A program made the translations under genes and the position numbers. DNA of 30,672 bases from Elusimicrobiota bacterium. GTDB lineage: Bacteria; Elusimicrobiota; Elusimicrobia; UBA1565; UBA9628. Location of the stretch: assembly GCA_027319565.1 (NCBI GenBank), contig DAHVNA010000027.1, positions 1-30,672 of the forward strand, read 5' to 3'. Every line of letters begins with the position of its first letter. Position 1 is the stretch's first letter. This document shows, piece after piece, positions 4,604 to 23,424 of this stretch. The notes under the pieces are model-generated. The model was not told the origin of the DNA and searched no databases. It saw only the letters and a list, made by a program, of their open reading frames with translations.

Positions 4604-4679
4604 TGGTGGACGTGACAGGGATCGAACCTGCGACCTCCTCGTTGCGAACGAGGCGCTCTCCCAGCTGAGCTACACGCCC
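4604..4679 (-). tRNA. tRNA-Ala(CGC)
   Basis: Reverse complement GGGCGTG TA GCTC AGCTGGGA GAGC G CCTCG TTCGCAA CGAGG AGGTC GCAGG TTCGATC CCTGT CACGTCC ACCA: 76 nt cloverleaf, anticodon CGC, G3:U70 alanine determinant, encoded CCA. Confidence 0.97.
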
Positions 4680-4680
4680 A
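4642..4680. repeat. att site, integrase-proximal (inside the intact tRNA)
   Basis: TTGCGAACGAGGCGCTCTCCCAGCTGAGCTACACGCCCA, identical to 23345-23383. Confidence 0.95.
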
Positions 4681-4687
4681 AAATCAT

Positions 4688-5755
4688 TTAATTATAAGCG
4701 TTTTTTACTGTTTTCTGGGTTTCTATTTTAAGCTTGGTGTCCAAAAAGTGTCCATCCTGGGACAAATCCGCAGATTCAACAGGCATAGACGCATCGAATT
4801 TGTCCATCTTCGCGGCCAAATGCTCCTTGGCCAAATGAGCGTAGCGCTGGGTCATTTGAGGTGAAGAATGGCCTAGTATCTTTTGCAAAGACGGCAAATC
4901 GCCCGTTCTCATGACAAAATGGCTCGCGAATGTGTGTCGTAGATCATGGAATCTGAACTCTTGTATTTTACCATTTTTCAGCGCGCGGGCAAATTGCCGT
5001 CGCAAAGTAATCTCTGGCATGTCGAAAACCGAGCCTATGGACTTGGGCCTTAGACCTAAAAAAACTTCCTTGAGTTTTTTGCCAATTGGAATTTCCCGCG
5101 GCTTTCCTGATTTCGACTCAAGAATGAAGATCGTGTCGTGTTCCAAATCCACGTTCTCCCAACGCAATCCCAGGATTTCTCCTTTCCGCATCCCAGTGAG
5201 GATAGCGCAGGTTAAAACCGGGCGTATTCGGGTCTCGGCCACATTCAGGAGTTGCTTAATCTCCGCTTCGCTTAAGAACCGCAGGCGGTGATTGTTTGGC
5301 TTTCTGCGGCGAACTTTTTCTACCGGGTTGTCGCCAAAGTAGTCCCCCCATTCCTTGGCGCGGTTAAAAACAGGCGAAAGAAACGCCAGGATGCGGTTGG
5401 CGGTCGAAGCGCTCGTCGCCGCAGTTTTCTCATTGTAGAATTCCTGTAAATCAGCCGCCGATACCTCCGCAAGTTTTTTATCGCAAAACCTTGACTCCAA
5501 GGCCTTAAAAACCGCACGACTGCCTTTCGCTTTGAGATACTGGCCCTCCAATTTCCAATATTTTTCCACGGCCTGCGTAAAAGAGATGGAACTTTTGGCG
5601 CGTTCGGGGAAAAACTTTTTCTCAGAGGCCTGAGACTGGCGTTTGAGAAGCACTTCTCGGGCCAAGCTTTTGGACGGCCCAATCTTCTCCCGTTTGCGGC
5701 GGTTGCCGCAATAATAATCGATATACCAGTTCTCGCCTCTCTTAAGGATACCCAT
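4688..5755 (-). CDS. int: Tyrosine recombinase / phage-type integrase
   Basis: TGMRKGE (R), SKSG (K), FHDLRH (HxxR), LGH, TQRYAH (Y); N-terminal arm-binding-like WYIDYY..RRKRE. ATG 5755 preferred over the track's TTG 6007, which overlaps xis. Confidence 0.95.
   Translation of the reverse strand: MGILKRGENWYIDYYCGNRRKREKIGPSKSLAREVLLKRQSQASEKKFFPERAKSSISFTQAVEKYWKLEGQYLKAKGSRAVFKALESRFCDKKLAEVSAADLQEFYNEKTAATSASTANRILAFLSPVFNRAKEWGDYFGDNPVEKVRRRKPNNHRLRFLSEAEIKQLLNVAETRIRPVLTCAILTGMRKGEILGLRWENVDLEHDTIFILESKSGKPREIPIGKKLKEVFLGLRPKSIGSVFDMPEITLRRQFARALKNGKIQEFRFHDLRHTFASHFVMRTGDLPSLQKILGHSSPQMTQRYAHLAKEHLAAKMDKFDASMPVESADLSQDGHFLDTKLKIETQKTVKNAYN
4734..4766. repeat. Putative integrase arm-type binding array (left)
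   Basis: TTGGTGTCCAAAAAGTGTCCATCCTGGGACAAA matches 23193-23225 at 31/33; GTGTCCA repeated with 11-bp period. Confidence 0.75.
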
Positions 5756-5798
5756 ATTATTATTTACGAGAAACCGCCAAAAAATGTTCCATGAGGGA

Positions 5799-6065
5799 TC
5801 ATCTTTTGACCACGCCGTTTTCCGAAAAGACTGAAACGGCCACGCGCCGTCCCTTAAGCCAGAGGTTGATCTCCTCGCGGTCAAAGCGGACCGAGCGCCC
5901 GACTTTAAGATGCGGAATCTTTTTCTGGTGCGTCCAGGTATAAAGAGTCGCCACGGGAGTTCCCATGTATGCCGATAACTCTTCGACCCGGAGAAGCTTT
6001 TTCTCAACGATCACTTCCCTGTTTTCTTGCAAGACTGCACCCACAATCACGTTGTCCTGGCTCAT
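5799..6065 (-). CDS. xis: Excisionase-like HTH (HTH_17) protein
   Basis: LLRVEELSAYMG....TLY.W....KIP..KVGRSVRF....I..WL; strong SD (GAGGGGGG); directly upstream of int. Confidence 0.88.
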   Translation of the reverse strand: MSQDNVIVGAVLQENREVIVEKKLLRVEELSAYMGTPVATLYTWTHQKKIPHLKVGRSVRFDREEINLWLKGRRVAVSVFSENGVVKR

Positions 6066-6080
6066 GATATTCCCCCCTCT

Positions 6081-6959
6081 TTAACTCAATATTCTAATCC
6101 GCTCCGGCGGATAGACGCTCAATTCCGTTGCGGCCTTAATGGCGATCGGTTCTACTCGCCTCTTCAGATAAATCTCGCCGCCGCGATAGCCGATGAACGG
6201 ACACCTGCCGAGGCTCGCCTGGAAGTCTTCTAAACTACAGACATAGATGAAGTCGGCCAAGAGTTTTCGCGCCTGAAAAAGGAGCAGCCTCGGCCCATTG
6301 GGAAACGACGTAACATAGAGGACCACCGCGCGACGGGGAAGACATCCCTGGTAAAAACTCCAGAGCTTGCGGTAACGCATCGCCGATTTCTGCGTCCGCT
6401 CAACTTCTATCGCCTTCGGCTGCTCATCATCGCTTACCCATAAATCAGGAAGCGGAAACGATCCGCGTTCATATTTTTTCTTCGCGCCCCGGCTCAGAAC
6501 CTGCCGCTCGAACTCCGTTGAAACGCGCAGACCCAGAAGCTCGCTGATTGTTAGGCCAATCCCAGTGACCAAGAGCTCATGCTTGACTAAAGAGTCCGCC
6601 ACGAAATCTCTGTAGTCTTCGAGCTTCGCCAGTCCAGCCTGTAGCAACACATCATGGCCTTTTCGCGTCAACGTGTAGACCCTTGGCACATTGGCAAAAC
6701 GATGAACCGCCGCTAAACCACGCTTTTCCAGTCTTCCCAAAACTTTATAGCCCGCCCCGCTATACTCGCCCTCAAACTTACAGCCAAAAAATAAATCCAG
6801 CCTTCTTCTTGCCTCAAGTCCTTTATGAAAAATCAATCCGTCCAACTGAGACAAACCCAGAATTCCCCATCTTTCCAGTCCCCTCATCACACTCAACCCT
6901 GCGCCTCTAATCTCAACATCAACATCATTTCCGTCACTTCCAATCTTGATCTTAATCAT
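6081..6959 (-). CDS. Replication-relaxation (Replic_Relax-like) protein
   Basis: N-terminal wHTH (L.RLEKRGL..VYTLTRKG), HELLV, PDLWV, AIEVERTQKS..RY (PD-(D/E)xK-like fold typical of this family). Confidence 0.72.
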   Translation of the reverse strand: MIKIKIGSDGNDVDVEIRGAGLSVMRGLERWGILGLSQLDGLIFHKGLEARRRLDLFFGCKFEGEYSGAGYKVLGRLEKRGLAAVHRFANVPRVYTLTRKGHDVLLQAGLAKLEDYRDFVADSLVKHELLVTGIGLTISELLGLRVSTEFERQVLSRGAKKKYERGSFPLPDLWVSDDEQPKAIEVERTQKSAMRYRKLWSFYQGCLPRRAVVLYVTSFPNGPRLLLFQARKLLADFIYVCSLEDFQASLGRCPFIGYRGGEIYLKRRVEPIAIKAATELSVYPPERIRILS

Positions 6960-7006
6960 TTTCTTTCCTTCTCCTTACGCTCTGCTTGCCGCCCCGCCTC
7001 CGCCGA

Positions 7007-7095
7007 CCTCCTGACCACAGCACCACGCTTAACCACAATTTTTAATGTGGTTGTGGGGGTGTGGTCAGGAGGCTTTGTCCCCGTTCGGGACAAAG
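7007..7095. other. Two adjacent hairpins upstream of the Replic_Relax gene (candidate origin / nick region)
   Basis: CCTCCTGACCACA 7007-7019 / TGTGGTCAGGAGG 7060-7072 with inner AACCACA/TGTGGTT; then CTTTGTCCC-cgttc-GGGACAAAG 7073-7095. The structure is seen; the function is inferred. Confidence 0.55.
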
Positions 7096-7230
7096 AGGCG
7101 GCTTGAAATGGGCGGCAAATATAAGCGTTTTTCATGATTGGTCCGTTTTCTCGCCATGTCTGCAAAAACAGACGTAGGGGCAGACATTGGGGTTGGCTGC
7201 CCCCTAAGCTCGAATTCCCCCCTTTTTTGC

Positions 7231-7613
7231 GCCCGATTCCCAGCCCATCCGTTCGATATCCCTACAAATACTTATCGTTTGAGCCGGTCAATTCCGCACA
7301 TTTCCGGAGCGCCTCATTCCCAGCTGCCCCTCACTTATATATTCGTTTGAGCGAGGCGTTTTCCCTCATTCCCCTCGTATTGATCGCTCTGTTTGGCCAC
7401 TGGCGATCCTCACTTCCTATTCGCGGGACCCCTCGAAATCCGCCCATGATTTTGTTTCTCCATCTGCCTCATCTTGCTCGATTCTTCCGTTCCCACCTCG
7501 TTTGCCATCTCCATTTCCCCCTTTCTTTTGCGCTTGATTCTCTCCTTTTTGCCGCCCGATTCCCAGCCCATCCGTTCGAGACCCCTACAAATACTTATCG
7601 TTTGAGCCGGTCA
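7231..7613. repeat. 60-bp direct repeat, two copies (7231-7290, 7554-7613)
   Basis: GCCCGATTCCCAGCCCATCCGTTCGA(T/G)A(T/C)CCCTACAAATACTTATCGTTTGAGCCGGTCA, 58/60 identical, period 323 bp. Confidence 0.92.
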
Positions 7614-7884
7614 TTTCGTTGACATCCAGGACGTTCACCAGCCAGCGACCGAGTTGCTCTACACTTTATAATGCCATTCAGTCGGGTAAATCCGGGACAA
7701 GCGGTGGGATTTTATGAGGTTTTTCAGTTCCGATTGAGGGCTTCGCGTTTCAGAAGGGATCCCTTTTGAGCGCAAATCTAAATAGCTAGGACTGGCGATT
7801 ACAAATCATGGAATACGCCTTAATTCTTCGATTGAGACTCGTGGGACCTAATCTTCCTTGGCCGAACAGACGACGGCCAGGCCA

Positions 7885-8574
7885 CTAATCCGAGTATTCA
7901 TGGAGTTCGTAAACCTTATCGATCTTCCTGCCGTTCCATTCAAAAATCAGTTGCTGTTTCTGCCGACAATGGTTTAGAACAGGAGGCCTCAAGACAGCCG
8001 CGCATTGCCCGCCCTTGTGTCGGACGCTGTTGTAGGCAATCCCATAGGAAGATTCTTTGACCAGTCTGTCGGCCAATTCTTGCGAGGCGGCGTAACTTGT
8101 CCGACTGTAGATTTGCGGCAACTTTCTCTGCATACCCCTGATGTCATGCAGGTGGCCGTCGAGATCGGCGGTCAGGACCCGCATCTCAAGCCGCATCGCT
8201 ACCTCCTGGGTGCGGCTCATAAAGATTTGGCGGTGATGCTTGGTTTCCTCGACAGCCGTCGGAAGCGTTCGCGCCGCATAATAGATTCCATGCTGGCCGT
8301 TGCTGAAACGGCTTCCTTCCGGATTCCTATATGTGAAAGGGGCCATGATGTATTCGCTGCCCGGCCCGGAGATCAAGTCCACGGGGGCGACGATGGCGAC
8401 TTCTCCACGCTCTTGCCGCAGGCGCTCGTTCGTCATCAGCTCGAGATCGGAGACCACTTCGACGTCATCGGGATCGGCCACTTTTTCCAGTATGCGCTCA
8501 TCGGGATAGCGGGTTGGAATAATGCGCCAGCAGGGCTCCCACTGAACGCGATTGACCGGGATGTTCATGCCCAC
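7885..8574 (-). CDS. RES-domain toxin (MbcT/ParT-like NAD+ phosphorylase)
   Basis: SRFSNG..GIYYAA....TA.EET..H, Y.ASQ.LA, GIAYNSVR..GG.C (R-E-S residues). Confidence 0.92.
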   Translation of the reverse strand: MGMNIPVNRVQWEPCWRIIPTRYPDERILEKVADPDDVEVVSDLELMTNERLRQERGEVAIVAPVDLISGPGSEYIMAPFTYRNPEGSRFSNGQHGIYYAARTLPTAVEETKHHRQIFMSRTQEVAMRLEMRVLTADLDGHLHDIRGMQRKLPQIYSRTSYAASQELADRLVKESSYGIAYNSVRHKGGQCAAVLRPPVLNHCRQKQQLIFEWNGRKIDKVYELHEYSD

Positions 8575-8969
8575 CCGCCACGTTGAGCATCCAGATACTG
8601 CCTAACTACGTAGAGGTCGCTCACGTGCCCTGAGAGCATACGGTCCAGCGCGGACTTGCCGCCGAAGATAGGCGCCGTATTGGGTTTTTTAATCCAGGCA
8701 TCAGCCGAGTCCTCATTAGGCAGGAGAATGTGGAGCGCCTTGAATATCCCCAGGAGATACGAAATTCTCTCCAGCGTATCGAGAGACAGATGTCCGTCCT
8801 GGTCTTTTTTCCAGTTGAAGAAGGTTGAACGCGCTGAAACACCCAGCAGCTTCATTTGCTCTTTTACGTCCAGGTTCCACCGCTGCGCGAGGCGAAAGAA
8901 AGCTCTAAGCGCCGGGCCGGACGCGGTCTTCGGGTCTAACTTCCTGGGTAGCGTCTGTGTGATTCCCAT
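8565..8969 (-). CDS. Xre/MbcA/ParS antitoxin
   Basis: N-terminal HTH (LLGVSARSTFFNWK), ERISYLLGIFKAL, W...PN....FGG.SALD.M, VR.YLD..RGG; overlaps the toxin start. Confidence 0.92.
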   Translation of the reverse strand: MGITQTLPRKLDPKTASGPALRAFFRLAQRWNLDVKEQMKLLGVSARSTFFNWKKDQDGHLSLDTLERISYLLGIFKALHILLPNEDSADAWIKKPNTAPIFGGKSALDRMLSGHVSDLYVVRQYLDAQRGGWA

Positions 8970-9112: not shown

Positions 9113-10138
9113 TCACCGGATTTCGCGCGATTTCTTTTTCTTCCGGCTGGGCGCGGGTAGATTTTTCAATTTTTTCACAGCCGCTTCAAAATCCTTTTCC
9201 GCCTGCGAGGGCTCGACGAGTTGCGCACGGTGGAATTTCTCGAACTCCATCTCCGCCTTCTGCGCCGCCTGTTCATGCGAAATCTTTCCGGCATGATTGA
9301 GAATGTCCCGTCCACTCAGGCGCAGAAAATCGTCCAGTTTCGCAATCCAGTCCCGCATATACATGGGCCTGCGGTTCAAGGCCTGGAGTTCCGCCAACTC
9401 AAGATAGGCGGTTACGATGCGGTTGAGCGCATCAAGTTCCTCTGGAGATAGATAATTTTTCGCGATGACAGCTTCCGTCTTGCTGGGCTTGGCGCCTACC
9501 CAATTGGTCATTCCCATCTGGGGCTTTGAAGCGTCTGCTCGGGCGTCAATGACCTCGGCCGCAGTCTGGCCGTGCGCCGCCCAGTGCATTTTGTTTTGCA
9601 CCGTGGCGAAAAATTGTTGCGACGCTTTCGCGTTGGGATCATAGTCGATGCTTGTCGCGTAAATTTCCAGAACTTTGCGCCAGAAAACTTTTTCCGATGA
9701 TCGGATGTCCCGGATACGCGCCAACAATTCTTCAAAGTAATTCCCGCCTCCACGCCGCTTCAACCGCTCATCATCCATCGCAAAGCCCTTCACGATATAT
9801 TCGCGTAGCCGCTGCGTAGCCCAGATGCGAAATTGCGTGGCCTGATGACTATTGACCCTATAGCCCACGGCGATGATGGCATCGAGGTTATAGTATTTGG
9901 CCGAGTAGATTTTTCCATCGCGGGCAGTATGTTCCAAAATGGAACATACTGAATCTTCCGAGAGTTCCCCCGTTGAGAAGATGTTGCCCAAGTGTTTCGT
10001 GATAGTTGGGCGTTGAACTCCAAAAAGTTTCGCTAGCGTCTTTTGAGTTAGCCAGACAGTCTCGTTTTTTAAAAACACCTCCACTTTTACCGTCCCGTCC
10101 GGAGCGGTGTAAAGAAGGAATTGATTATGATCGCTCAT
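9113..10138 (-). CDS. RhuM family protein
   Basis: ETVWLTQ..LA.LFGV...TITKHL.NIF..GEL, YNLDAIIAVGYRVNS..ATQFR.WA, RIRDIRSSEK.F, FFATVQNKMHWA. Start 10138 likely; track start is 10174. Confidence 0.92.
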   Translation of the reverse strand: MSDHNQFLLYTAPDGTVKVEVFLKNETVWLTQKTLAKLFGVQRPTITKHLGNIFSTGELSEDSVCSILEHTARDGKIYSAKYYNLDAIIAVGYRVNSHQATQFRIWATQRLREYIVKGFAMDDERLKRRGGGNYFEELLARIRDIRSSEKVFWRKVLEIYATSIDYDPNAKASQQFFATVQNKMHWAAHGQTAAEVIDARADASKPQMGMTNWVGAKPSKTEAVIAKNYLSPEELDALNRIVTAYLELAELQALNRRPMYMRDWIAKLDDFLRLSGRDILNHAGKISHEQAAQKAEMEFEKFHRAQLVEPSQAEKDFEAAVKKLKNLPAPSRKKKKSREIR

Positions 10139-10288
10139 GGTTTTATTCTTTATGATTTCCAGTCTCAATGACAATCTTGGATGAATGGCCCTTGCTATTT
10201 ATACGATTCAAGGCCTTATTTTGTTCCATTGCGGGAGGGGTTGGGTTCGTTCCGCAATCAAAGGGTAAAAGCTGTCTCGATGATTTCG

Positions 10289-11725
10289 TCATGGAGTCTC
10301 GCTGTTGGGGTTTTCTTGCCCATCGGTTTCGTTGTCGGAGGATATTTCCAGCGACACGATGGGAGCCAGAGATGCGCCGATGAGCCCTTGCAGGTCGCCA
10401 TACATTCCCGATGTATTATGGATAACCCGTTGAATCTGTTTTTCCCGCTTAGCCCACGTCCTTTCCATGGCGCGTTTTTCGGAATCGAGATCGGTTTTCA
10501 TCGCGACGAAGGCTTCCACGATAGCTTCAACGCGGTGCCGGAACTCGGGGCCCGAGAGATAGCGGTAAATTAATTCCATTTTTTCGCCCTTGCCGGCCAT
10601 GGCGTTTTGCACTTGCGCTAGCTGCGTGATGCCGGCGCGCAGGGCCGTTGAGAGTCCGACTAAAGACGGGAAATCCGTCACCCAAATGCCTTCATATTGC
10701 CCGATGTGGTTGACGCCTTTCGGCAAGACGGTGGAGACAATAACTCCAAAATCGGCTTTCGCCTCTCTCATGTCATCCTTGAGTTTTTGGACCCAAGCGT
10801 CGCTCCAGGCCTTGGTGCGCTTGGATTCCCAAAGGATACTTCCATGAGTTTTTCCGGAAGAGGAACACACCCGTTGAAGGGCGTCCGCGCCGCGCACGCC
10901 CTTGGCGACCGGCTCGATTTCGTCAAAGCGGAAACTTGAGCGGAGAATTTCTTCCAGCGCCAATTCCTGGACTTCTCCTTGAGCCTGTTGCGATCCCTGT
11001 TCGGCTTTTCGCTTCAAGTCCTCGATCTGCTTTCTCATGTCGTCAAGCTGCTTGTCTTTCTCGCGGTCGCGCAGATGATGCTCTTCGGCGGCTTTGGCCA
11101 GCGCGTCCTCGCGGATTTTAGCGCGCTCTTCATCGAGCTTTCGCTCAAGCTCCAATGCCAATGAGCGCTCGCGGTCCTCAAGTTCCCGCTGTTTCTTCCG
11201 GAATAGAATTTCGTTTTCTCGGGCCGAATCGAGCTGTTTGGTCCGCTCTTCCAGTTGAAGTTTGAGGTCATTGAGCGCTGTCTGTTGTTCTCCCAATGCC
11301 TTGGCCGCGGCCTCTTCCCGAATCTTTGCCCGCTCTTTATCAAGAGTCCGCTGAACCTCTAGTTTTAATCCGCTCTCGCGCTCCTCGATTTCGCGTTCGC
11401 GCTTGCGCAGGGCTAATTCCTGTTTGCGGGCGTCCTCAAGAAGCTTGGCTTTTTCCTCAAGCTGGGATTTTAAATCCTTCATGTCGTGAGCCAAGGTTTC
11501 CTCGGCTCGTTTCTTGGCCGCTTTCTCAATGGCCGCGCGTTCGCCAGCAAGAGCTTGAGCTTGCTCTTTCTTTAAAGCTTCAATCGCGGTTTCATGCTCA
11601 TGCTCTTTCCGCTTGTTTTCAGATTCAAAATCTTTGCGAAGTTTTTCCTCGATGGGATGAGTCAAAGCTTCGGTCAGTTGAATTTTTTTGCCGCAATGCG
11701 GACATAGGATCGATTGGTCGGTCAT
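10289..11725 (-). CDS. DUF2130 family coiled-coil protein with C-terminal nuclease-like fold
   Basis: N-terminal CPHC, long coiled coil, GSQQAQGEVQEL.LE..L...F..D.I..V.KG..GAD, ILWESKRTK.WS..W..KLK.D. Confidence 0.88.
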   Translation of the reverse strand: MTDQSILCPHCGKKIQLTEALTHPIEEKLRKDFESENKRKEHEHETAIEALKKEQAQALAGERAAIEKAAKKRAEETLAHDMKDLKSQLEEKAKLLEDARKQELALRKREREIEERESGLKLEVQRTLDKERAKIREEAAAKALGEQQTALNDLKLQLEERTKQLDSARENEILFRKKQRELEDRERSLALELERKLDEERAKIREDALAKAAEEHHLRDREKDKQLDDMRKQIEDLKRKAEQGSQQAQGEVQELALEEILRSSFRFDEIEPVAKGVRGADALQRVCSSSGKTHGSILWESKRTKAWSDAWVQKLKDDMREAKADFGVIVSTVLPKGVNHIGQYEGIWVTDFPSLVGLSTALRAGITQLAQVQNAMAGKGEKMELIYRYLSGPEFRHRVEAIVEAFVAMKTDLDSEKRAMERTWAKREKQIQRVIHNTSGMYGDLQGLIGASLAPIVSLEISSDNETDGQENPNSETP

Positions 11726-13963: not shown

Positions 13964-16942
13964 TTACACCTCATCCGCCGTCACCGCTACGGCGAAGGGA
14001 ACGCCGAGGGAGTCGAAATGTTTTTGGCCGCAGCGAACTTTGTCGGCCTCGGAGGTGCGGAGTTTTAGAAAATCTCGCGTTGCCTTGGTCTCGCGCGCGA
14101 GGTAAAGGGTCTCGCCATTTTGTTTAAGAATCGCCCAGTCGGGATTGTATTTGCCGACAGGCGTGTCGATCTCAAACCAGCCGGGAAGTTTTACAAAGAG
14201 CTTGATGTCTTCTCGCTCGTCTAAGCGCTTGGCGAACTCGCGTTCGACTTCGGAATCGTAAACCACATATTCATAAACCGATTTTTTGACCTCAAGAGCG
14301 TTCAAGTAATTGACCAGCTCTTCATTTTTAAACCGCAACATCTCCCATTCGGAGTCCGCCCCGGCTCCCTTAATCCGCTCATACTTAATTCCATCCACTA
14401 ACAGGCAATGCAACTCATGTTTGAGAATAGAGGCCACGGCGTCCATGAAGCGCTGCGGATTATTAAAAAATTCGGACAAGCGGCCTGAAGCCTTGAGAAT
14501 TCGCGCAAGAGTCGAGCGAGTGAGTTCCGTTTCATTTTGCAAATAACCAAGAATATCTGGAATCGGACGATTTTCATAATCTGCCAAATCTTCAACCGTG
14601 CTCGCCGCCGCGACTGTTACCCCGCCCTTGATCACGCCCAAACGGCCAGCGCTTATTCGCACGCTCGGTTTTTCAATGCGCTCCATCCTTTTTAAGGCGT
14701 CTGTCGCTTTTTGAATAAGAGCCTCGGTCTCAAATTCCACGCGATAAGTCGTCCTGGGGTTGATCCGCTTCCAAAGCTCTTGAAATTCCGGGCTAAGGGT
14801 CACTTCTTTTTTGAGATGATTAGGCCTTTCGTCTTTCTCTTTTCGGATATGGCGTTCGATCTGATAGGCCGAGAGTAAATCGATGACGGCGGGGCCCAGC
14901 TCGCGGTATTTTTTAGGCATTTCAAGCTTAAAATCTTTTCGTTTGGGATCAAAAGCGGGCTGGATGCGGCCCTCGGCGTCAAAAATATTTTGGCGAACGA
15001 GTTCCGCGCGAATCAGTTCGGCCGCCTCTCGGCCAATGGGCTGTTCTTTCCCATCCACGACACGAATTAACTTGGCGATGGCGGTCAAAGGCACTTTGCC
15101 GAAACTCACGCCGCAATCTTCTTCATATTCCTTTTGAAGAGCCTTCGCGAAGTCCTCGTAGCTCTCATTAGCCATGACGTAAAGTTTGTTGATGGATTCA
15201 TCAAAAACGCGCAAGCCGTTTTGGTCGACGGGAAGCCTTAAACCCCGTCCTATCTCTTGGCGTTTTTTCATCGCGCTTTTAGTTTCGTTGAGCGTGCAAA
15301 TCTGGAACACATTGGGATTGTCCCAGCCTTCCCGCAAAGCGGAGTGGCTAAAGATAAAGCGCAGAGGCTCATCCAGCGACAAAAGTCGTTCTTTTTCTTT
15401 CATGATGAGGTTATAAACCTCATCATCAAGCTGAGTGTCCCCGCGCGTGTCTTTAAGAACGCCTTTTTTGTCTTGGGCGAAATAGCCGTTGTGAAGTTTC
15501 TCAATCGGCTCTTTAAGCCACGGCAAATCTCGAAAGCGCTCTTCCTTAGCCAACTGAGTGAGTTCAGTTTCAAAAGCTTCGGCGAACTTGCCTTTGACGG
15601 ATTTGCCTTCGGCGTCATAATCGCGATAATTCGCCACGCGGTCGATAAAAAAGAGGCTCAACACCTTGATCCCGCGTCCGCGCAGTTGAATTTCTTTTTC
15701 CAGATGCCTTTTAACCGTGTGCCTAATTTGAGCGCGCCAAACATCATCCTGCATTCCGCCGATCTCTTCTCCCAGCCGCAGCGTGCGGCCATTGCTCAAG
15801 CGAATAAATTCGGAACCCGGCTCGGCGTTGATTTCGGCGATGGAATAGCCGTCGGCGTAATTGGCCCGCTCATTAGACAAGGCGAATAAATCGGAGCCTT
15901 GCTTAATGGGAACCGATTTTTCTTTCGGGCCATCGGCAGTCTGAACATGGATGCGGAGCCTGGCCTTGAGGCTGGGCTTGTAATCAATTCGTTCGACACG
16001 CACAAAAGCGTCGTTGGCCGCGCCTTGGGCCTCGGCGCTGGCGACCACGATTTGCTTGACCAGCTTCAGTTCAAAGGCCCGCACCGGATCAAGTCGGTAC
16101 ACGAGATTGTAAGGGTTGCGGTGAGTGGCCGAGTAGCGCAATGTGCACAAGGGATTAAGAGCCTTAATAGCCTCTTGTGACTTTTCGGTTGAGTCGACGC
16201 TTTGCGGCTCGTCAATAATCACGATCGGACGCGCCGCTTGGACAAATTCTATCGGCTGGCGGCCAGAAAGTTTGTCGCTCTCTTTATAGATGACATTGCT
16301 CTTTCGCTCATCATCAGTTCCGGAAAAATTCTTGCGGAACGCGTCGATATTGATAATGAGAATTTGAAGAGCGTTTCCCGTGGCGAATTGGCGAAGGCGG
16401 TTGACTTTTTTCGCGTCATAAACGAAATGCTCGAACGGCAAATGATTATAAAGCGCGCGGAAATGTTCGGCGGTGATCTCGATATTTTTCAGCACGCCTT
16501 CCCGAACGGCGACGCTCGGAACGACGATAATGAATTTTTGAAAGCCGTATTTGCGAGAAAGCTCGAAAATCGTCCGCAAATAGACATAGGTCTTTCCCGT
16601 GCCCGTCTCCATTTCGACTGAAAAATGCGGACACGCGCGGGATTGATTGGCTGGGACATCGAACAATTCCCACGCTTGAGGAGGCGCCGCGGGATCTAGA
16701 ACTTCGATATCATTTTGCGTTTGAACAACGCGCAGGTTCTCGCGGAGCTTATCTTCGGCTAAAAGCAGCCGATTTCCAATGCCGAGTTCCGTCATCGCCT
16801 GCCCTTCAAAAATACCCTCGAACTCGCCCAGTTTAATGACGGAGTAGTCTGAAACGCCGCGAGGCTGGCCGTTAAAAAGCTCGCAAACAGCGGAAACCGC
16901 GTCAATTTGAAATTGCTGATTCGCGTCGAATTGAAGTTTCAT
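13964..16942 (-). CDS. res: Type III restriction endonuclease subunit Res
   Basis: EMETGTGKT, IIDEPQ, RYSATH, ALREGWDNPNVFQICTL, QEIGRGLRL, C-terminal YNPDW..ETK nuclease motif. Confidence 0.95.
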   Translation of the reverse strand: MKLQFDANQQFQIDAVSAVCELFNGQPRGVSDYSVIKLGEFEGIFEGQAMTELGIGNRLLLAEDKLRENLRVVQTQNDIEVLDPAAPPQAWELFDVPANQSRACPHFSVEMETGTGKTYVYLRTIFELSRKYGFQKFIIVVPSVAVREGVLKNIEITAEHFRALYNHLPFEHFVYDAKKVNRLRQFATGNALQILIINIDAFRKNFSGTDDERKSNVIYKESDKLSGRQPIEFVQAARPIVIIDEPQSVDSTEKSQEAIKALNPLCTLRYSATHRNPYNLVYRLDPVRAFELKLVKQIVVASAEAQGAANDAFVRVERIDYKPSLKARLRIHVQTADGPKEKSVPIKQGSDLFALSNERANYADGYSIAEINAEPGSEFIRLSNGRTLRLGEEIGGMQDDVWRAQIRHTVKRHLEKEIQLRGRGIKVLSLFFIDRVANYRDYDAEGKSVKGKFAEAFETELTQLAKEERFRDLPWLKEPIEKLHNGYFAQDKKGVLKDTRGDTQLDDEVYNLIMKEKERLLSLDEPLRFIFSHSALREGWDNPNVFQICTLNETKSAMKKRQEIGRGLRLPVDQNGLRVFDESINKLYVMANESYEDFAKALQKEYEEDCGVSFGKVPLTAIAKLIRVVDGKEQPIGREAAELIRAELVRQNIFDAEGRIQPAFDPKRKDFKLEMPKKYRELGPAVIDLLSAYQIERHIRKEKDERPNHLKKEVTLSPEFQELWKRINPRTTYRVEFETEALIQKATDALKRMERIEKPSVRISAGRLGVIKGGVTVAAASTVEDLADYENRPIPDILGYLQNETELTRSTLARILKASGRLSEFFNNPQRFMDAVASILKHELHCLLVDGIKYERIKGAGADSEWEMLRFKNEELVNYLNALEVKKSVYEYVVYDSEVEREFAKRLDEREDIKLFVKLPGWFEIDTPVGKYNPDWAILKQNGETLYLARETKATRDFLKLRTSEADKVRCGQKHFDSLGVPFAVAVTADEV

Positions 16943-18780
16943 GCCTTTTCTTCCGCCTTGGTATAGGCTTGGTCTGGATGGTTGGGAGATTCAGGATAGA
17001 GAAGCCGAAGGCTTCCTTCGCGCACCATCGGCGTCAAATACGCATTTCTCAGATTCTGAGGATTTCGCTTTAAAAAACGCGAGAGAGATTCAAGAGTAAG
17101 AAAGCGCCCTTGGCAAAGTTGTTTCAACACAGCCGTCATTTCTTTGGCTGATACCTTTTTCTTTGAGGCAACTGGGGCCGCTAATTCCCGCAGGGCGATA
17201 TCCTCCGCCAAACCTGAGGAGTCGGCTGCCAAACCTGAGGAGTCGGCTGCCAAACCTGAGGAGTCATCTCCAGAACCGGATGAGCCTACAGGTGAAGGGA
17301 GATGATAACGAGTCCAGCGGCGCCGATTATCGGATTCCAATAGACCCTGCTCGCGGAGTTCAAACAACATTCGAGAAATATCCGCAGGATGATCGCTCAA
17401 AAGCTCCTGTAAACGCGTGTTTGAAACTTCCCCCTCTATTTCCGCGGTCGCCATGGCCTGTATTTGGGAAGCCGTTAAGTGATCAAGACGGGATCCGAAA
17501 AGCTTGCGCAAATGCTCAAGAGTCGTATCAGGTATTAAGCTGACCATGGGAAGAATTATTTTGACCCGATCAGGATTTATTTGAAACCCTATGAGGGGAA
17601 GCCTCCATTGGCGGCTTTTCCAACCGGCGCGAATCTTGTCCACTCCCGAGCCCGCTTGTTCGCCGCCTCCAATCATAAGAAACATTTTTTGTAAGGCCTT
17701 GTTGCGGCATTCGCTGACTCCGCCACGACGGAATTGCTCTAATGACACCAACAAAGTTCCCGGATTTTCTAAAATAAATTTATCCGGATAGCGCTCAAAA
17801 ACGATCCCGCCGGGCGCCGAATAGTCGGCATGGATAAGAGAGTTCACGAAGGCCTCGCGCAAAGCCTCATGCGCTGGGGTTTCATCCCGGCGCATGCCGC
17901 CCTCAATTTGAAAAGGCGCGGGAAGTCCCGCGGAAAGTTTAGGCCAAACGCGCAAGTAAAATTGAAACACATTAGCTTCCCAGGTTCCATCCGGATAAAC
18001 CCTGTCGGTCCAGCGCGTTTTAGGATCCAACTTTTCTCGATAATCAACGAAATAATTCGGCGCCGCCTCCGGATCCCGAATAGCTTTGTCTTTTCCAAAC
18101 ATCAAGAGTCCGGCCAGAGTCAGGCCTTCCGCGCCGCTGACGCGATCCTTTCTCCAGCCGCCCAAGCGCTCCAGTAATTCTTTGTCTGGAAGAGAAAGCC
18201 ATGCGTGTTCGCCCTTTGAAGAAAGAAAGCGTTGGCGATATTGAGTCAAACTGGCCAGATCAATATCTTCAAGCGAAAATCCTTTGAGAATTCGATGGTC
18301 CGCGGGCGTCGGATCGGCGTCAGCCAGCATACGGCGAACTTCATCGTCCGCGCAGCGGTAATCTCCTTCATGATTGCGGCGATAAGAGTTTCCAAAAGGG
18401 GTTGGACCAAGATAAACCGGGCGAATGCCGCGCTCCGCACGCGGAACACGGATGGAGAGAAGTCCGGAACCCTCTAGAGGCACGACTTGAACATCCGCGT
18501 TCGCCAACAAGCAACGGCTCACTTTCTGCCGGTTGTTGAGGCCATCCCAGAGAATTTTTTGATACCCCTGCAACTGAGGCTCGGTCAGGCCATCCAAGCG
18601 AACTTCATCGCCGTCTTGGCGCGCCCCTAAAACAATAATCCCGCCTTCGCTATTGGCGAAAGCGCTATAGGTCTCCCAAAAACTTCCTGGAAATCCGCCA
18701 CGCGCGGATTTAAACTCCCAGTCGGTGTTTTCGCCTACGCCGGCCGCCTCTAAAATACGGTTGAGCAAATCCGCGTTCAT
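16939..18780 (-). CDS. AlbA_2 (Schlafen-like) + HATPase_c_4 + winged-helix protein
   Basis: GE..DWEFKSA, YSAFANSEGG.IVLG, TLAGLLMFG, ALREA.VNSLIHADY, ENPG, RN..L..MF, EQAGSG; C-terminal YP..PNHPDQAY. Confidence 0.88.
   Translation of the reverse strand: MNADLLNRILEAAGVGENTDWEFKSARGGFPGSFWETYSAFANSEGGIIVLGARQDGDEVRLDGLTEPQLQGYQKILWDGLNNRQKVSRCLLANADVQVVPLEGSGLLSIRVPRAERGIRPVYLGPTPFGNSYRRNHEGDYRCADDEVRRMLADADPTPADHRILKGFSLEDIDLASLTQYRQRFLSSKGEHAWLSLPDKELLERLGGWRKDRVSGAEGLTLAGLLMFGKDKAIRDPEAAPNYFVDYREKLDPKTRWTDRVYPDGTWEANVFQFYLRVWPKLSAGLPAPFQIEGGMRRDETPAHEALREAFVNSLIHADYSAPGGIVFERYPDKFILENPGTLLVSLEQFRRGGVSECRNKALQKMFLMIGGGEQAGSGVDKIRAGWKSRQWRLPLIGFQINPDRVKIILPMVSLIPDTTLEHLRKLFGSRLDHLTASQIQAMATAEIEGEVSNTRLQELLSDHPADISRMLFELREQGLLESDNRRRWTRYHLPSPVGSSGSGDDSSGLAADSSGLAADSSGLAEDIALRELAAPVASKKKVSAKEMTAVLKQLCQGRFLTLESLSRFLKRNPQNLRNAYLTPMVREGSLRLLYPESPNHPDQAYTKAEEKA
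17207..17269. repeat. In-frame 21-bp tandem repeat x3 encoding (A/D)DSSGLA
   Basis: GCCAAACCTGAGGAGTCGGCT x2 followed by GCCAAACCTGAGGAGTCATCT. Confidence 0.95.
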
Positions 18781-18782
18781 TT

Positions 18783-20723
18783 CTAAATGGTCTTAAAGCT
18801 CGCGATGCCCTTGGTTTTGAATGTTTGGACGGCGTTTGTCTTGAGCTGGTCGTTTCCCTCAAAACCCTCATCCAAACAAACCACGCGCTCGGGTTTTTTA
18901 TCGGCTATCGCGCGGATGAGTTCAAGCGTCAGCTTCCGTTCAAGGCAAATCAGAAAAGCGCCGCCGGCCACGGCGAAAACCGTAAAACCCGCAAGGCGGA
19001 TTTTTTCAATCGGAGCGGTAAGAGGATATCCGTCTTTGAGCAGAATTTCATAGAGGATGTCATCCGGCGTCCGCCCCGGTCGCAGATGATCGATATGCAG
19101 TTCGAGCTGTTTTTCCAGAGTTTTTGAATCGTGGGAGACGTCGGCATTCCAGGTTTTGAAATTCGACTCGGCCAATTTGAAAACGCGAAAGCCGCGATCT
19201 TGCTTTTTTTCGCCGTTGAGGCCGAGTTTGCCGGAATCGTCATCGTTTAATTTCTTGATCACCCGCCGCACGCGCTCTTTAGTGATATCGGCGATGGTCT
19301 TGAGCCCCGCCTTATAGGCCGCGCTCTCGGGATCGCACGGCTCGGGAAGCTGAACCAAAATAAACTTGCGGTTTCCGCCGTCTTGCTTGTTTAAATCAAG
19401 CACGGCATGGGCAGTAGTTCCGGAACCTGCGAAGAAATCGAGAATAATGTCATCGGTTGAAGTTGTTCCAAGATTCAAAAGTGGTTTCAAAAGCCCAGTT
19501 GGCTTGGGAAAAGAAAATATGTGCGCATCATTAAATATCTCAAGAAATTCATTTGTCCCATGCTGTGTATAAGCGTTATCGATAATTGAGAATGCTTTGC
19601 TTTCCCGCAAATTACCTTTTTCATCCTTCAAGTATTGCTTAGTATGCACGGACCAACTATTATCCTTATTGTATAGGAACTCCAGTTCGTTATTTTTTAA
19701 GGCTTCGGCAACACGATCTTTGGACCAAAGCCACTGACGCTTTGGCATTACTTGCTTGCCATCAGGGGCCAAAATAGGAAACACTAGGTTCTTTCTCTCG
19801 CCCATACTTTTAGTTGCTTCAAGAGGATGAGTTCGGTATGGACCACGTTTTTCAAAGTTGTTGTCTTTTAGTTTGTAATAGTGTTCGATAGATTCTTGTT
19901 TTTGCGGAACAAACAGTGGCTCAATGCTTTCAATGTCACGAGCATAACAGAGGATATATTCATGTATAGAAACCAAGTGTTTTTCTTTAGCACCTCCCCC
20001 ATATCTTTTTTTCCAGATGATATTCTCAAGGAAATTCTCTTCACCAAAAATATCATCGCAAACCTTCTTGAGGTTATCGAATTCAAAATCGTCGATACTG
20101 ATAAATATCAAACCATCCTCTCGCAATAAATTCCTCGCCAGATAGAGGCGCGGGTACATCATATTGAGCCATTTGGAATGAAAACGGCCATCGGTGTCGG
20201 TGTTGGTTCCGAATTTCCGGCCTTCGGCGTCCGCTTGGCCGGTGTATTCGAGATAGGTCTGCAAACTTTCTGAGAAATTATCGGGATAGATAAAATCGTT
20301 GCCCGTGTTGTAGGGCGGGTCGATATAGATCATCTTGATTTTGCCGAGATAGGACTTTTGCAAAAGCTTGAGCGCTTCAAGATTGTCGCCTTCGATGATG
20401 AGATTTTCAGTCGCGTCGAAATTGACGCTTTCCTTTGGAGCGGGAAGTAAAGCGCCGAGGCTCGGCTTTTGGATGGTCTTAAAGCAATCGGCCTTGCCCG
20501 GCCAATTCATGCCGTAGCGCTCCTTGCCCGCGTCCACGGTTTCCCCCAACGCGCGCTTAAGCCGATCAAAATCAATTTTCCCGCCTTCGGTGCGCGCCTC
20601 GGGAAAAAGCCGGGCGAGTTCCCGGCGTTTCTCTTCGGCGATGTCTTTTGACCGTAAATCCAATTTCTCCGGCTGTTCAGCCGTGGCGCGCGCTTTTTTT
20701 GCCATTTCCTTATCGGTCGTCAT
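18783..20723 (-). CDS. mod: Type III R-M methyltransferase Mod (beta-class amino-MTase)
   Basis: IEGDNLEALKLL, IYIDPPYNTG, HSKWLNMMYPRL, FPKP, ILDFFAGSGTT. Confidence 0.95.
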   Translation of the reverse strand: MTTDKEMAKKARATAEQPEKLDLRSKDIAEEKRRELARLFPEARTEGGKIDFDRLKRALGETVDAGKERYGMNWPGKADCFKTIQKPSLGALLPAPKESVNFDATENLIIEGDNLEALKLLQKSYLGKIKMIYIDPPYNTGNDFIYPDNFSESLQTYLEYTGQADAEGRKFGTNTDTDGRFHSKWLNMMYPRLYLARNLLREDGLIFISIDDFEFDNLKKVCDDIFGEENFLENIIWKKRYGGGAKEKHLVSIHEYILCYARDIESIEPLFVPQKQESIEHYYKLKDNNFEKRGPYRTHPLEATKSMGERKNLVFPILAPDGKQVMPKRQWLWSKDRVAEALKNNELEFLYNKDNSWSVHTKQYLKDEKGNLRESKAFSIIDNAYTQHGTNEFLEIFNDAHIFSFPKPTGLLKPLLNLGTTSTDDIILDFFAGSGTTAHAVLDLNKQDGGNRKFILVQLPEPCDPESAAYKAGLKTIADITKERVRRVIKKLNDDDSGKLGLNGEKKQDRGFRVFKLAESNFKTWNADVSHDSKTLEKQLELHIDHLRPGRTPDDILYEILLKDGYPLTAPIEKIRLAGFTVFAVAGGAFLICLERKLTLELIRAIADKKPERVVCLDEGFEGNDQLKTNAVQTFKTKGIASFKTI

Positions 20724-20797
20724 AATCGTAGTCTATCTTTTTTATTTCAAGGATGAGAAATGCGAATTGAACTCCTATTGTTTTGGAAACGATTTTG

Positions 20798-21140
20798 TTA
20801 CGGTAATTGCGGCTTAATGGGGGCTGGGCTGGGAAATTCAAAAATGCCAGCATCAGGTTTTTTGATTGGAGGAGGAATTAACGGCATTGGTCCCGGCATC
20901 GCAAGTTTTATAAAAGCGCGGTTCAGGTGATTTTCAATGATTTTCGCGGCAGGTGTCATCGTGAAGGTAATCGTTGTCGAATGAAAAACCGACAAAACAA
21001 GATCCTGCAACGTCTTGTCATCTTCCAAAGGCACAATCTTAAAGCCGATGGATTGGCATTGAGCCATATCAAAATGTCTGCTATGACTCATGTGGCGACT
21101 GTGATCCACAAGCTCCACAATCGCTTGGACAACACTCCGC
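20798..21140 (-). pseudogene. C-terminal remnant of an SDH_sah / Clp-fold serine protease
   Basis: IVELVDH...SHSRH..IGFKI..LEDD..LQDLVLSV.H..KIIENH...AFIK resembles the C-terminus of that family as I recall it. An in-frame stop lies 16 codons upstream of 21118 and there is no N-terminal catalytic domain. Confidence 0.6.
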
Positions 21141-21146
21141 AGGCCC

Positions 21147-21191
21147 TTGACAAATTTCCTATTTCATGGTATTTTCCTAAGTAGGAAAATA
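21147..21191 (+). promoter_or_regulatory. Promoter of AbiE-like operon with operator inverted repeat
   Basis: TTGACA 21147-21152, 17 bp, TG-g-TATTTT 21170-21175; perfect IR TATTTTCCTA-ag-TAGGAAAATA at 21170-21191. Confidence 0.8.
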
Positions 21192-21196
21192 TAACT

Positions 21197-22246
21197 ATGC
21201 AGGAAAATAATCTAATCTCTGAAAAGGACATCCTAGACCTGTTGGACGTCCGGAAGGGCCTTTATGCCCCCCTTGCGATTGTCGCGATTGACAGGAAAGT
21301 CGGCAAGGGCCAATCTGATGCCAAGATCACTTTGAGCTTTCGAGGCCGCAAGGTTTCTTTCCTCGCGGAAGTTAAATCCCGCACGGCGCCGAAAATCATT
21401 AGCGAAGGTCTTTGGCGGCTTAAGAACTATCCAAACCGGAGCGAGCGGAATCTTCTCTTAGTCGTCCCCTACCTTTCAAAAACAATTCAGGAACTGCTTA
21501 ATGAGGAAAACATCAGCGGCATTGATTTGAGCGGCAACTACATGATCCAGACCTCTGAGGTGGTCGCCGTGCGACTCGATCAAAAGAATCAATTTCCCGA
21601 GTCTCAGCCGATCAAGAAAATCTTCTCGGGGAACAGTTCGATTGTCGGGAGGCTTTTCCTGACGGCGAGCAAACAATACGAATCGGTTAACGCAGTCAAT
21701 TCCGCCATAAAGGCGTTCGGCGGAAATCTTTCGTTATCCGCCGTTTCTAAGGTTTTGAGCGGTCTTGAAGACGAACTCATCATCGAAAAAAGTCGGGGAA
21801 AGATTTTCCTGCTTCAACCCGAGAAACTGCTACAAAAGCTTCAGGACGATTATCGCCCGCCCAAAGTGACGGCCGAGATACGGCTTCAACTTCCTCTAAA
21901 AGGCCTCAATAGCCTTCAGGATCTCAACAAGGCGTTAGCGCCCTCAACCCGGTGGGTTCTTAGCGGGGAGAGCTCGGTCGAGCGCTATGCCGTCACCACC
22001 CGCGCCGAAATTTCAACCGTTTACGCGACCGCGCTGGGAACATGGAGTCAATATGAGAATGATCGCTTCTATAATGTGATCATGAAGCGAACTTTGGATT
22101 CCTTTCCATACTTCGACGCGCGGGAAAATAATCGCCTGCGCTGGGCTTCCCCCATTCAATGCTATCTCGAGCTTTCCAAGATGGATAAACGCGAAAAGGA
22201 AATCGCGGAAACCGTGCGCGAAGCCATATTGACAAAACTGAAATGA
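21197..22246 (+). CDS. AbiEi-like type IV antitoxin / transcriptional regulator
   Basis: N-terminal D...AEVK segment, IDLSGN, central wHTH (LSLSAVSKVL..LED), LSGE, C-terminal ASPIQCYLEL..R.KE.AE; ATGA overlap with the next gene. Confidence 0.7.
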   Translation: MQENNLISEKDILDLLDVRKGLYAPLAIVAIDRKVGKGQSDAKITLSFRGRKVSFLAEVKSRTAPKIISEGLWRLKNYPNRSERNLLLVVPYLSKTIQELLNEENISGIDLSGNYMIQTSEVVAVRLDQKNQFPESQPIKKIFSGNSSIVGRLFLTASKQYESVNAVNSAIKAFGGNLSLSAVSKVLSGLEDELIIEKSRGKIFLLQPEKLLQKLQDDYRPPKVTAEIRLQLPLKGLNSLQDLNKALAPSTRWVLSGESSVERYAVTTRAEISTVYATALGTWSQYENDRFYNVIMKRTLDSFPYFDARENNRLRWASPIQCYLELSKMDKREKEIAETVREAILTKLK

Positions 22247-23124
22247 CGCCTGACGACAACGACCCGTTGCTACGCCAGCTTCTTGAGATTGTCCGTGAGC
22301 TGGACGCGGAGAATATTCCCATTATTCTCGGCGGCGGAATGAACCGTTATCTGAGCCAGAAGTATATGAGTAGCCGGATGCCGCGCTATCCTTTCGATCT
22401 GGCGACGCGCTCCACCAATGACCTGGACATTTTCCTTTCCTCGGGGCTCATTGTAGATGCGGGCAGAATGGAAAGGCTGCGTCTAGTGATTGAGCGCCTG
22501 CACTATAAGGTTATCCCCAAAGCCAAGAACTTTCAATTTGCAAAGGAAGTGGACCTCTACGGACAAAAGCAAACGGTTAAGATCGACCTCTTGGCCGCGC
22601 CGCCGCAGGATGCGGATAGGGCCAAGGTCGATATCAGTAAGCCCCGCATTAAGCCTAAGGGCGCCAAGGACATCCACGCTTATTTGACCGATGAGGCGAA
22701 AGGCATTGAAATCGGCAAGCTGGCCGTGGATATCGGACTTTTGGACCCGGAGTTGAAACTCAAGCACGAGATTTTATTTCTGCCTTCGGCCTTCAATACC
22801 TTGATTCTCAAGCTCCACGCCTTCGCGGATCGCAAGGACAGAGAGGACAGCGATTTCGGTCGGCATCATGCCTTGGATATCTTCGCGACCGTGGCTAGAA
22901 TGAACGAGAGGGACTGGAAAATCGCCCAAGGGCACCTTGCTTCGCATCGAGGCCAAGATTATCTGACCGAGGCCCTTCGCATCCGAAAGGAAAACTTCTC
23001 CCAGCGGTCCGACATTGGATCAATTCGTCTCCAGGAAAACGAATCCTACCAACAGAATCGACGAATCTACGATCAATATTTAGAGTTTTTTATTAAAGAC
23101 CTGGTCGATCTTTTCCCGGATTAA
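22243..23124 (+). CDS. AbiEii-like nucleotidyltransferase toxin
   Basis: ILGGG, RSTNDLDIF (DxD), KIDLL, LILKLHA..D pol-beta-superfamily motifs. Confidence 0.72.
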   Translation: MTPDDNDPLLRQLLEIVRELDAENIPIILGGGMNRYLSQKYMSSRMPRYPFDLATRSTNDLDIFLSSGLIVDAGRMERLRLVIERLHYKVIPKAKNFQFAKEVDLYGQKQTVKIDLLAAPPQDADRAKVDISKPRIKPKGAKDIHAYLTDEAKGIEIGKLAVDIGLLDPELKLKHEILFLPSAFNTLILKLHAFADRKDREDSDFGRHHALDIFATVARMNERDWKIAQGHLASHRGQDYLTEALRIRKENFSQRSDIGSIRLQENESYQQNRRIYDQYLEFFIKDLVDLFPD

Positions 23125-23192
23125 ACTGGATATTGTCGTGCGGTACGCACAACCTTTCCGGCTATGGCAGGCTGTGGCAATAGGAACTAAAT

Positions 23193-23225
23193 TTGGTGTC
23201 CAAAAAGTGTCCATACTGGGTCAAA
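23193..23225. repeat. Putative integrase arm-type binding array (right)
   Basis: TTGGTGTCCAAAAAGTGTCCATACTGGGTCAAA, same orientation as 4734-4766. Confidence 0.75.
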
Positions 23226-23344
23226 AACGGCAAAACAGAAAAAAAGCCCGTCAAAATGGAGTAACGCGGTTTCTCGACGAGAAATCAAGCTAAAACAAGG
23301 AAAACAGAGGTGGGTCAAAATCCAGAGAAAAGGCCTTTTTCCCA

Positions 23345-23383
23345 TTGCGAACGAGGCGCTCTCCCAGCTGAGCTACACGCCCA
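23345..23383 (-). repeat. att site, distal: displaced 5' half (nt -1 to 38) of tRNA-Ala
   Basis: Identical to 4642-4680. Minus-strand TATAAT at 23397-23392 lies 9 nt upstream of the tRNA G1 equivalent. Confidence 0.95.
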
Positions 23384-23424
23384 TTATCGTGATTATACAA
23401 TACTTTTTTGACTATCCTGGCCGC

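Follow-up and report, generated by a model that had tools for sequence, protein, structure and literature searches.

Known elements at the 5' halves of tRNA genes

In integrases that target tRNA genes, the 7-bp overlap of the recombination site corresponds to the anticodon loop, and rebuilt bacterial tRNA genes keep their original promoter with very few exceptions, according to the relevant sections of the review by Badel et al. 2021 (PMC8371274). The same sections describe archaeal pTN3-like integrases that use a tRNA gene's 5' half as attB and whose restored gene is expressed from the integrase promoter, an arrangement that is seldom met in bacteria (PMC8371274). Among the islands catalogued by Islander, 159 of 3919 carry a 5' fragment (Hudson, Lau & Williams 2015, PMC4383910, Table 1). 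Here we describe an element of this kind in an Elusimicrobiota bacterium. The analysed stretch, hereafter the window, is one whole contig of 30,672 nt (DAHVNA010000027.1 of assembly GCA_027319565.1; G000:C31 in our numbering) from a 2.03-Mb, 92%-complete assembly. The element occupies about 18.7 kb of it, between an intact tRNA-Ala(CGC) gene and a displaced copy of the 5' half of that gene. An earlier note on this DNA had proposed that the element restores the tRNA's 5' half and replaces its promoter by one whose -10 box lies in the last codons of the integrase gene.

The locus is a well-delimited defence island of a known minority type. We consider it likely to be an integrative element from a lineage that holds the target tRNA gene's 5' half within its attP, with a weak attP -10 box and read-through from the element together feeding the rebuilt tRNA. 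Its geometry, empty site, repeats and lineage habit can be read directly in the sequence.

Geometry of the repeat and the tRNA junctions

The direct repeat at 4642-4680 and 23345-23383 is exact over 39 bp with no extension on either side, and is well beyond chance (blastn E 1e-14 in the genome). It comprises tRNA-Ala(CGC) nt -1 to 38, and its last base is the end of the anticodon loop TTCGCAA, exactly as the earlier note had read it. The intact gene at 4604-4679 (minus strand) is the sole tRNA in the window (ARAGORN; Rfam), where the Rfam scan found no other structured RNA. By the tRNA calls and the repeat end, nt 1-38 of this gene come from the attP copy of the element, which is the integrase-proximal copy of the identity block, and nt 39-76 come from the host. 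The second copy (minus strand) is the displaced 5' half. The two copies are spaced 18,703 bp apart, which sets the length of the element and falls in the 2-200 kb range of Islander. The arrangement of an intact tRNA gene with a same-orientation end fragment, here a 5' fragment upstream of the gene, is the one by which Islander-type islands are recognised. The identity ends at nt 38 here and similarly in relatives, which points to a crossover at the anticodon loop (Islander site A) and to 4642-4648 (minus strand) as the putative 7-bp strand-exchange region. Replacement of the 5' side at the anticodon loop is thus borne out by the repeat geometry, and the view that this is the less common geometry agrees with the 4% of Islander islands that have it.

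The tyrosine integrase (4688-5755, minus strand; about 355 aa) contains PF00589 (E 9e-31) and PF24624 within one open reading frame (ORF), and its ATG at 5755 is placed by the alignment start of close homologs. The gene is undivided, points at the tRNA, and has its stop codon 8 nt ahead of tRNA nt 1. Each copy has a TATAAT ahead of its nt 1, at a distance of 9 nt for the displaced half (23397-23392) and of 11 nt for the intact tRNA (4696-4691). The latter is in frame, with the codons TAT AAT directly ahead of the integrase stop TAA (protein end ...NAYN*). Both positions had been given correctly before.

Lambda-type arm-binding tyrosine integrases have tandem repeats on both attP arms, the gene order xis-int and an attP beside the 3' end of int. 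Inside both ends of the element are tandem GTGTCCA repeats with an 11-bp period that the earlier note had overlooked. One copy lies in the 3' end of the integrase gene (4737-4754) and the second lies at the far end (23196-23213). From their position, both are putative arm-type integrase sites.

In the mechanism that we propose, the attP of this integrase lineage would carry the 5' half of the target tRNA, and recombination would take place across the 7-nt anticodon loop, where identity ends. At one end, the resident promoter would be left with a 38-nt half-tRNA. At the other, the full tRNA would be rebuilt directly behind the integrase stop and would be transcribed from element signals, most likely from a weak, -10-only attP promoter at native spacing. 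Read-through from the co-oriented rep-xis-int genes may help, as nearly all element genes run in the same direction, and the 5' end of the rebuilt tRNA would be processed in the ordinary way. The integrase frame would simply run into attP, so that its overlap with TATAAT would be incidental, and likewise the presence of a convergent AbiEii-like gene at the far end.

Empty and occupied sites in relatives

A genome of the same genus, G001, has an empty site. It consists of trx, tRNA-Ala(CGC), one 404-aa ORF, and then homologs of the window ORFs from 23989 onward, and no integrase match was found at this tRNA-Ala(CGC) site. We take the upstream genes, from reading of their sequences, to be dhs, an agmatinase-like gene and a thioredoxin-like gene, in that order. 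The empty-site tRNA is preceded at 9 nt by TTTTGTATAAT, and the sequence upstream of it resembles the resident -10 region of the window. Therefore, the window sequence from 4681 on is element DNA. Comparison with an element-free relative, which had been suggested as a check, thus confirms attB and excludes that the sequence from 4681 onward belongs to the host. Occupied sites were found as well. In G003, whose integrase is 89% identical, and in G002, where it is 66% identical, this site is taken by elements that share the 39-bp fragment and have largely different cargo; G014 retains a 1.9-kb element remnant there, again with this 5' fragment.

Two further genomes were rejected as empty sites. 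In G005 (L039:6856-7060, contig C22), an arm-like GCCACC tandem precedes tRNA-Ala(CGC) at about 77 nt, and the cargo resembles type I restriction-modification. A search of the upstream 45 kb found neither a displaced fragment nor an integrase match. The 35 nt upstream of the G005 tRNA match the sequence upstream of the displaced half in the window (92% over 76 nt including the repeat). Either an element has captured a host promoter there, or the resident promoter of the window is the relic of an older element; the -10 region of this resident promoter recurs in the G001 sequence. In G004, an integrase remnant lies 70 nt before tRNA-Ala(CGC), with the arm region lost (L040; contig C18, 15832-16204). 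A new G-TACAAT stands 9 nt before this tRNA, and the gene appears to have regained a -10 box after decay of the element. The upstream sequences of G005 and G004 remained in the set of other native promoters used below, a small contamination from which the counts based on the window genome (G000) alone and the scoring model are free.

In the contigs of four DNA runs, neither an attP joint (23383 to 4681) nor an attB joint was among those listed, and these contigs resolve the 39-bp repeat unreliably. In run X5, a depth of 8.93 is common to two joints on either flank, which would be compatible with one contig across an empty site in a relative.

A lineage of integrases at tRNA genes

Of 401 sampled genomes of the phylum, 104 have an integrase match at E 1e-40 or better. 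The loci examined were those returned by the integrase searches and 80 longer regions down the E-value ranking of these matches, some short contigs and near-duplicates being skipped, and they are thus a sample and not a census. We distinguished 112 integrase ends. Just downstream lies a co-oriented tRNA at 66 of them and an opposite-strand tRNA at 5, and no tRNA was called at the other 41; among these 41 are three 5' and five 3' tRNA parts in co-orientation and two 5' fragments in reverse. Removal of a weak distant call (L028) and one duplicate leaves 64 distinct junctions, which span 26 isoacceptors. Besides G003, 16 distinct loci show the displaced 5' half (17 in all); the integrases of L118 and L025 are identical. 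In the 16 junction pairs, identity ends at nt 36-46, where the loop ends at nt 37-40, and the whole 5' half up to nt -1 is kept exactly. In 34 of the 64 relatives, tandems like the GTGTCCA arm repeats occur at 95-129 nt from the loop, and the distance from the integrase stop to the tRNA ranges from -160 to +314 nt.

Members with the tRNA on the opposite strand fall in three places on a quick, unrooted tree (G000_C63 and L143; L163 and L169; L054). In these members, the integrase end abuts the 3' end of the tRNA, and L163 has a displaced 3' half as well. L181 and L184 have a reversed displaced 5' half. Both groups are nested among 5'-restoring members. The distribution of the opposite-strand members suggests repeated orientation flips at the anticodon loop.

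The window genome holds further members of the lineage at tRNA-Val(TAC) and tRNA-Gly(GCC). At the former, an integrase points into the tRNA with TAG-TAAAAT 11 nt upstream (C89, 52521-53667). Elsewhere in this genome are other members or remnants: an arm tandem stands directly before tRNA-Thr(CGT) (C32, 18616-18712), and an integrase is followed by a tRNA-Thr 3' part (C46, 5359-5376). A TCGTCGG/CCGACGA-type motif recurs between the arm repeats and the core in either attP arm (L168, L176, L191, L173, L167 and several far arms) and is a candidate site for an accessory protein.

Promoter signals before the rebuilt tRNA

The intact tRNA is cut off from its native promoter, which stays with the displaced half, as had been claimed. 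This resident promoter, with the -10 region ATTG-TATAAT at 23392-23401 (minus strand), scores 13.4 on a host model built from 23 native sites of the window genome only (leave-one-out range 4.1-13.7). It stands at the top of the range of host tRNA promoters, and 0 of about 3000 random genome windows reach its score. Since it now lies 18.7 kb away, any expression of the rebuilt tRNA must come from element DNA, that is, from the upstream box, from rep-xis-int read-through, or from both. No terminator-like site was found between int and the tRNA.

We counted as a box any hexamer of the form TAnnnT that scored 5 or 6 of 6 matches and stood 6-17 nt ahead of the tRNA. Such a box is present in 23 of the 64 element junctions, where shuffling gives a mean of 7.8 and 0 of 1000 shuffles reach 23. 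Three control windows further upstream contain it in 9, 4 and 4 of 64 cases and the reverse strand in 12 of 64, while native tRNAs of the window genome have it in 18 of 37 cases and windows of the far attP arm in 6 of 224. Relatives with at least 43% integrase identity account for most boxes (20 of 35; shuffle mean 4.1), and the two sides of the tree differ correspondingly (20/31 vs 2/28). The modal spacing is 11 nt in elements, and natives peak at 9. Native promoters are of the extended -10 type, with TG at -15/-14 or G at -13 in 34 of 41 and TTG at -35 in 6 of 41. This extended context accompanies 15 of the 23 element boxes, against a genome-wide share of 15% for such hexamers. In L134 and L116, the element-side upstream sequence nearly copies the resident one including the -10 box, with a similarity above all cross-pairs, which suggests that attP can capture a host promoter together with the 5' half. 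At the level of the lineage, the evidence is good that an element-supplied -10 box is a general trend. For the window itself, a copy of the promoter of this host was considered and rejected, the similarity being no higher than that of cross-pairs (10% reach it).

Several observations weigh against the explanation by a weak attP box with read-through. The element-side CGCT-TATAAT scores 0.1 on the host model. Its T at -13 is shared by 1 of 23 natives, and a search for a -35 gave no match. G002, with an intact element at the same site, reads TATAAG, and G014 reads TATAAA. In the lineage, only 3 of 29 relatives below 43% identity have a box, and the 43% split was picked after the data had been seen. 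The far end lies outside the DNA examined or was not found for about 47 of the 64 junctions, and the relatives are not independent, so that the counts overstate certainty. In addition, the TATAAT has neither TG at -15/-14 nor G at -13 (GCT-TATAAT), and the best alternative element-side site scores 5.5, which 3.8% of random windows reach. A sigma-70 scan called neither of the two TATAAT sites a full promoter, for lack of a -35, an element that is missing from most native tRNA promoters as well.

For the hexamer itself, conservation is incomplete. In a seven-member subclade (G000, G003 twice, G001, G002, G005 and G014), the palindrome TTATAA (4692-4697 in the window, overlapping the integrase codons Tyr-Asn) is present in 7 of 7 junctions and the full TATAAT in 5 of 7, compared with TTATAA in 1 of 38 native tRNAs. 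The expectation that related integrases conserve a terminal TATAAT thus holds for the palindrome and only partly for the box, and the T at -7 is lost in two of the seven. This pattern, together with the score of 0.1, also fits a possible, somewhat doubtful reading with the same geometry, in which TTATAA would be an attP accessory site for an excisionase-like or host DNA-bending protein and the tRNA would be expressed by rep-xis-int read-through only. An 8-of-9 match to the integration host factor (IHF) consensus WATCARnnnnTTR overlaps the palindrome at 4682-4694 (plus strand), the -10 box is wholly absent from 26 of the 28 distant-clade junctions, and expression by read-through only is described for archaeal pTN3-like integrases. 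Against the accessory site, the hexamer lies at the modal element spacing of 11 nt, many sister elements have a full host-type extended -10, and IHF-like matches (8 of 9 or better) are not commoner in element-fed tRNAs than in natives (6/64 vs 6/102). IHF was likewise rejected as a family-wide explanation of the box on these counts.

It is unlikely that the rebuilt tRNA-Ala(CGC) is barely expressed at all, with the 5' half serving as a recombination sequence and GCG being read by tRNA-Ala(UGC) through wobble. The weakness of the element-side site fits this idea, and C34 isoacceptors are generally dispensable. However, exchange would need only the loop and stem, yet the 5' half is exact up to nt -1 in the 16 pairs. 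Among the relatives, U34 or G34 tRNAs are frequent targets, and the quality of the box is alike in the two groups (7/18 for C34 targets vs 17/46 for other targets, p 0.54), so that a dependence of box quality on tRNA dispensability was rejected. Finally, the tRNA-Ala(UGC) that would serve as backup was not found in the 92%-complete assembly.

A more elaborate scheme, which we regard as quite improbable, would have elements change target by capturing a new tRNA 5' half with its promoter, of which L134, L116 and G005 would be traces, and flip between 5'- and 3'-restoring modes at the symmetric anticodon loop. The TTATAA of the subclade would then have taken the place of the captured promoter and be both -10 box and operator, and an element protein (the excisionase-like helix-turn-helix protein, or the integrase on arm sites) would set the supply of a host tRNA. 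If this were true, host translation would depend on the regulatory state of the element.

Returning to the explanation by a weak box with read-through, we give 4696-4691 about an even chance of being a working -10. The proposal that the element supplies a replacement -10 is favoured by the lineage trend and disfavoured by the low score of this particular TATAAT and by its variants in G002 and G014; a replacement promoter in the last codons of the integrase is plausible but unproven.

The displaced half and the AbiEii-like gene

The AbiEii-like gene is convergent with the displaced half, and its end lies 219 nt beyond it. The earlier note had seen in this a native promoter driving a half-tRNA antisense to a toxin gene. 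Combined with the codon overlap of the TATAAT, this leads to a further model, in which a strong dedicated promoter in the last integrase codons would be under dual selection and a regulatory antisense RNA would act on the AbiEii-like toxin. A perfect in-frame TATAAT before the integrase stop is found in G000 and G003, the host model rates the resident promoter as strong, and the minus strand showed no terminator-like site from the half-tRNA to the toxin gene. These features fit the model, which we still hold to be very improbable. Among the 23 boxed elements, the box lies inside the integrase coding sequence in 9, over the stop in 4 and after it in 10, and it occurs in all three frames; together with the wide spread of stop-to-tRNA distances, this leaves no special meaning in the codon overlap. 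At the far end, the first long ORF runs antisense to the half-tRNA in 10 of 17 cases and sense in 6, and one far end has no such ORF; an AbiEii-like homolog was found in only 1 of the 17 elements with the far end seen, the window element itself (the G003 element was scanned in part). Conserved antisense control of the AbiEii-like gene is thus unlikely and that part of the earlier proposal finds no support, while a run-on transcript over the gene is possible at the window element.

Other genes and features of the element

On the tRNA strand, the genes of the element follow the order Mod, AlbA_2/RecG-C, Res, ATPase, DUF2130, RhuM, Xre-RES, Rep/relaxase-like, xis-like and integrase, and among the annotated element genes only the AbiEii-like two-gene pair lies on the opposite strand. 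Upstream of the integrase, an excisionase-like helix-turn-helix protein (5799-6065, minus strand) matches PF12728 and scores above the cutoff of TIGR01764. It is preceded by a Replication-relaxation-like protein (6081-6959, minus strand), which has an Atlas feature score of 0.97; a PF13814 match on 12-17% of its cluster members is a lead only. A 62% identical homolog of this protein is present in L041, and G002 also has the rep-xis-int core. The window integrase scores below the cutoffs of the XerC, XerD, XerS and integron-integrase models. A close phage integrase was not found, the best match in the phage database being 33% identical. A scan for viral-contig patterns gave two loci, neither with an integrase match or a tRNA, and no phage structural or conjugation genes were recognised among the element proteins scanned.

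The noncoding stretch at 6960-7880, upstream of the Rep/relaxase-like gene, contains a direct repeat of 81 bp (7214/7537). It also has an inverted repeat of 20 bp (7007-7072), which is met again at the end of contig C23. The stretch is a candidate origin of replication or transfer. The cargo on the minus strand begins with a RES-Xre toxin-antitoxin pair (7885-8969; PF08808, PF20432 and PF09722), followed by a RhuM-family protein (PDC-S05), a DUF2130 protein and an ATPase (PDC-S46) at 9113-13893. A type III restriction-modification system (13964-20723) consists of Res (13964-16942) and Mod (18783-20723) with an AlbA_2/RecG-C protein between them, whose gene has an in-frame 21-bp tandem repeat (17207-17284; DSSGLAA, about three copies). 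On the plus strand, the pair at 21197-23124 comprises an ORF of no known family and the AbiEii-like nucleotidyltransferase (22243-23124). The product of the latter has no Pfam, PADLOC or NCBIfam match, and its Atlas feature and structure neighbours are of the AbiEii/NTP_transf_8 type (TM 0.84 against a named AbiEii cluster). By position, the upstream ORF would be the antitoxin.

Outside the element, a globin-like ORF (4161-4568, minus strand; weak PF00042 match) lies on the same strand 35 nt downstream of the tRNA and has no match at the same site in G001, G003, G004 and G005. If it were co-transcribed with the tRNA, it would depend on element signals as well.

Comparison with known systems

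Taken singly, the island is an ordinary example of a rare, catalogued integration mode, and the useful part is the lineage. It offers dozens of natural junctions over 26 isoacceptors, in Elusimicrobiota and some other phyla, for the question of how tRNAs displaced from their promoters stay expressed, with an own -10, a captured host promoter and integrase read-through as possible routes to ask about. The lineage is also suited to the study of how tyrosine integrases change target and orientation. For annotation, many tRNAs in these genomes have element-derived sequence upstream of them, and these defence islands would escape island finders that seek only 3' fragments. A reverse-orientation bacterial integrative element, which uses the 5' part of a tRNA gene for recombination, was reportedly described by Zhao and Williams in 2002. 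The literature searched yielded no account of this lineage and none of a tRNA promoter carried in attP; Williams 2002 and Zhao & Williams 2002 may cover them, and the Islander/TIGER tables could already list relatives.

The 7-bp overlap at the loop, the arm tandems on both sides, the xis-int order and the attP beside the 3' end of int are shared with lambda-type systems, whose usual members, unlike this one, carry the 3' half and keep the host promoter. With pTN3-like elements, as far as the review outlines them, the present one shares an attB that is a tRNA 5' half and the restoration of the gene (PMC8371274). Those integrases have the att site within the gene and are split by integration into int(N) and int(C), whereas here the gene stays whole and att lies just past its stop. 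Unlike them, the present element also has an excisionase-like gene, arm-like repeats and, in many members of the lineage, a separate -10-like box in attP. The closest likeness is to the 5'-fragment islands of Islander, which in the portion of the account that treats them have an intact tDNA, a same-orientation displaced fragment upstream of the gene, an integrase inside, a length of 2-200 kb and the anticodon-centred site A (PMC4383910). That portion gives a count, without promoter analysis or a claim of integrase lineages, unlike the analysis here. The 5'-half geometry is thus already known and no new category is called for; what the locus adds in detail is the habit of a whole lineage, with traces of promoter capture and apparent flips of orientation.

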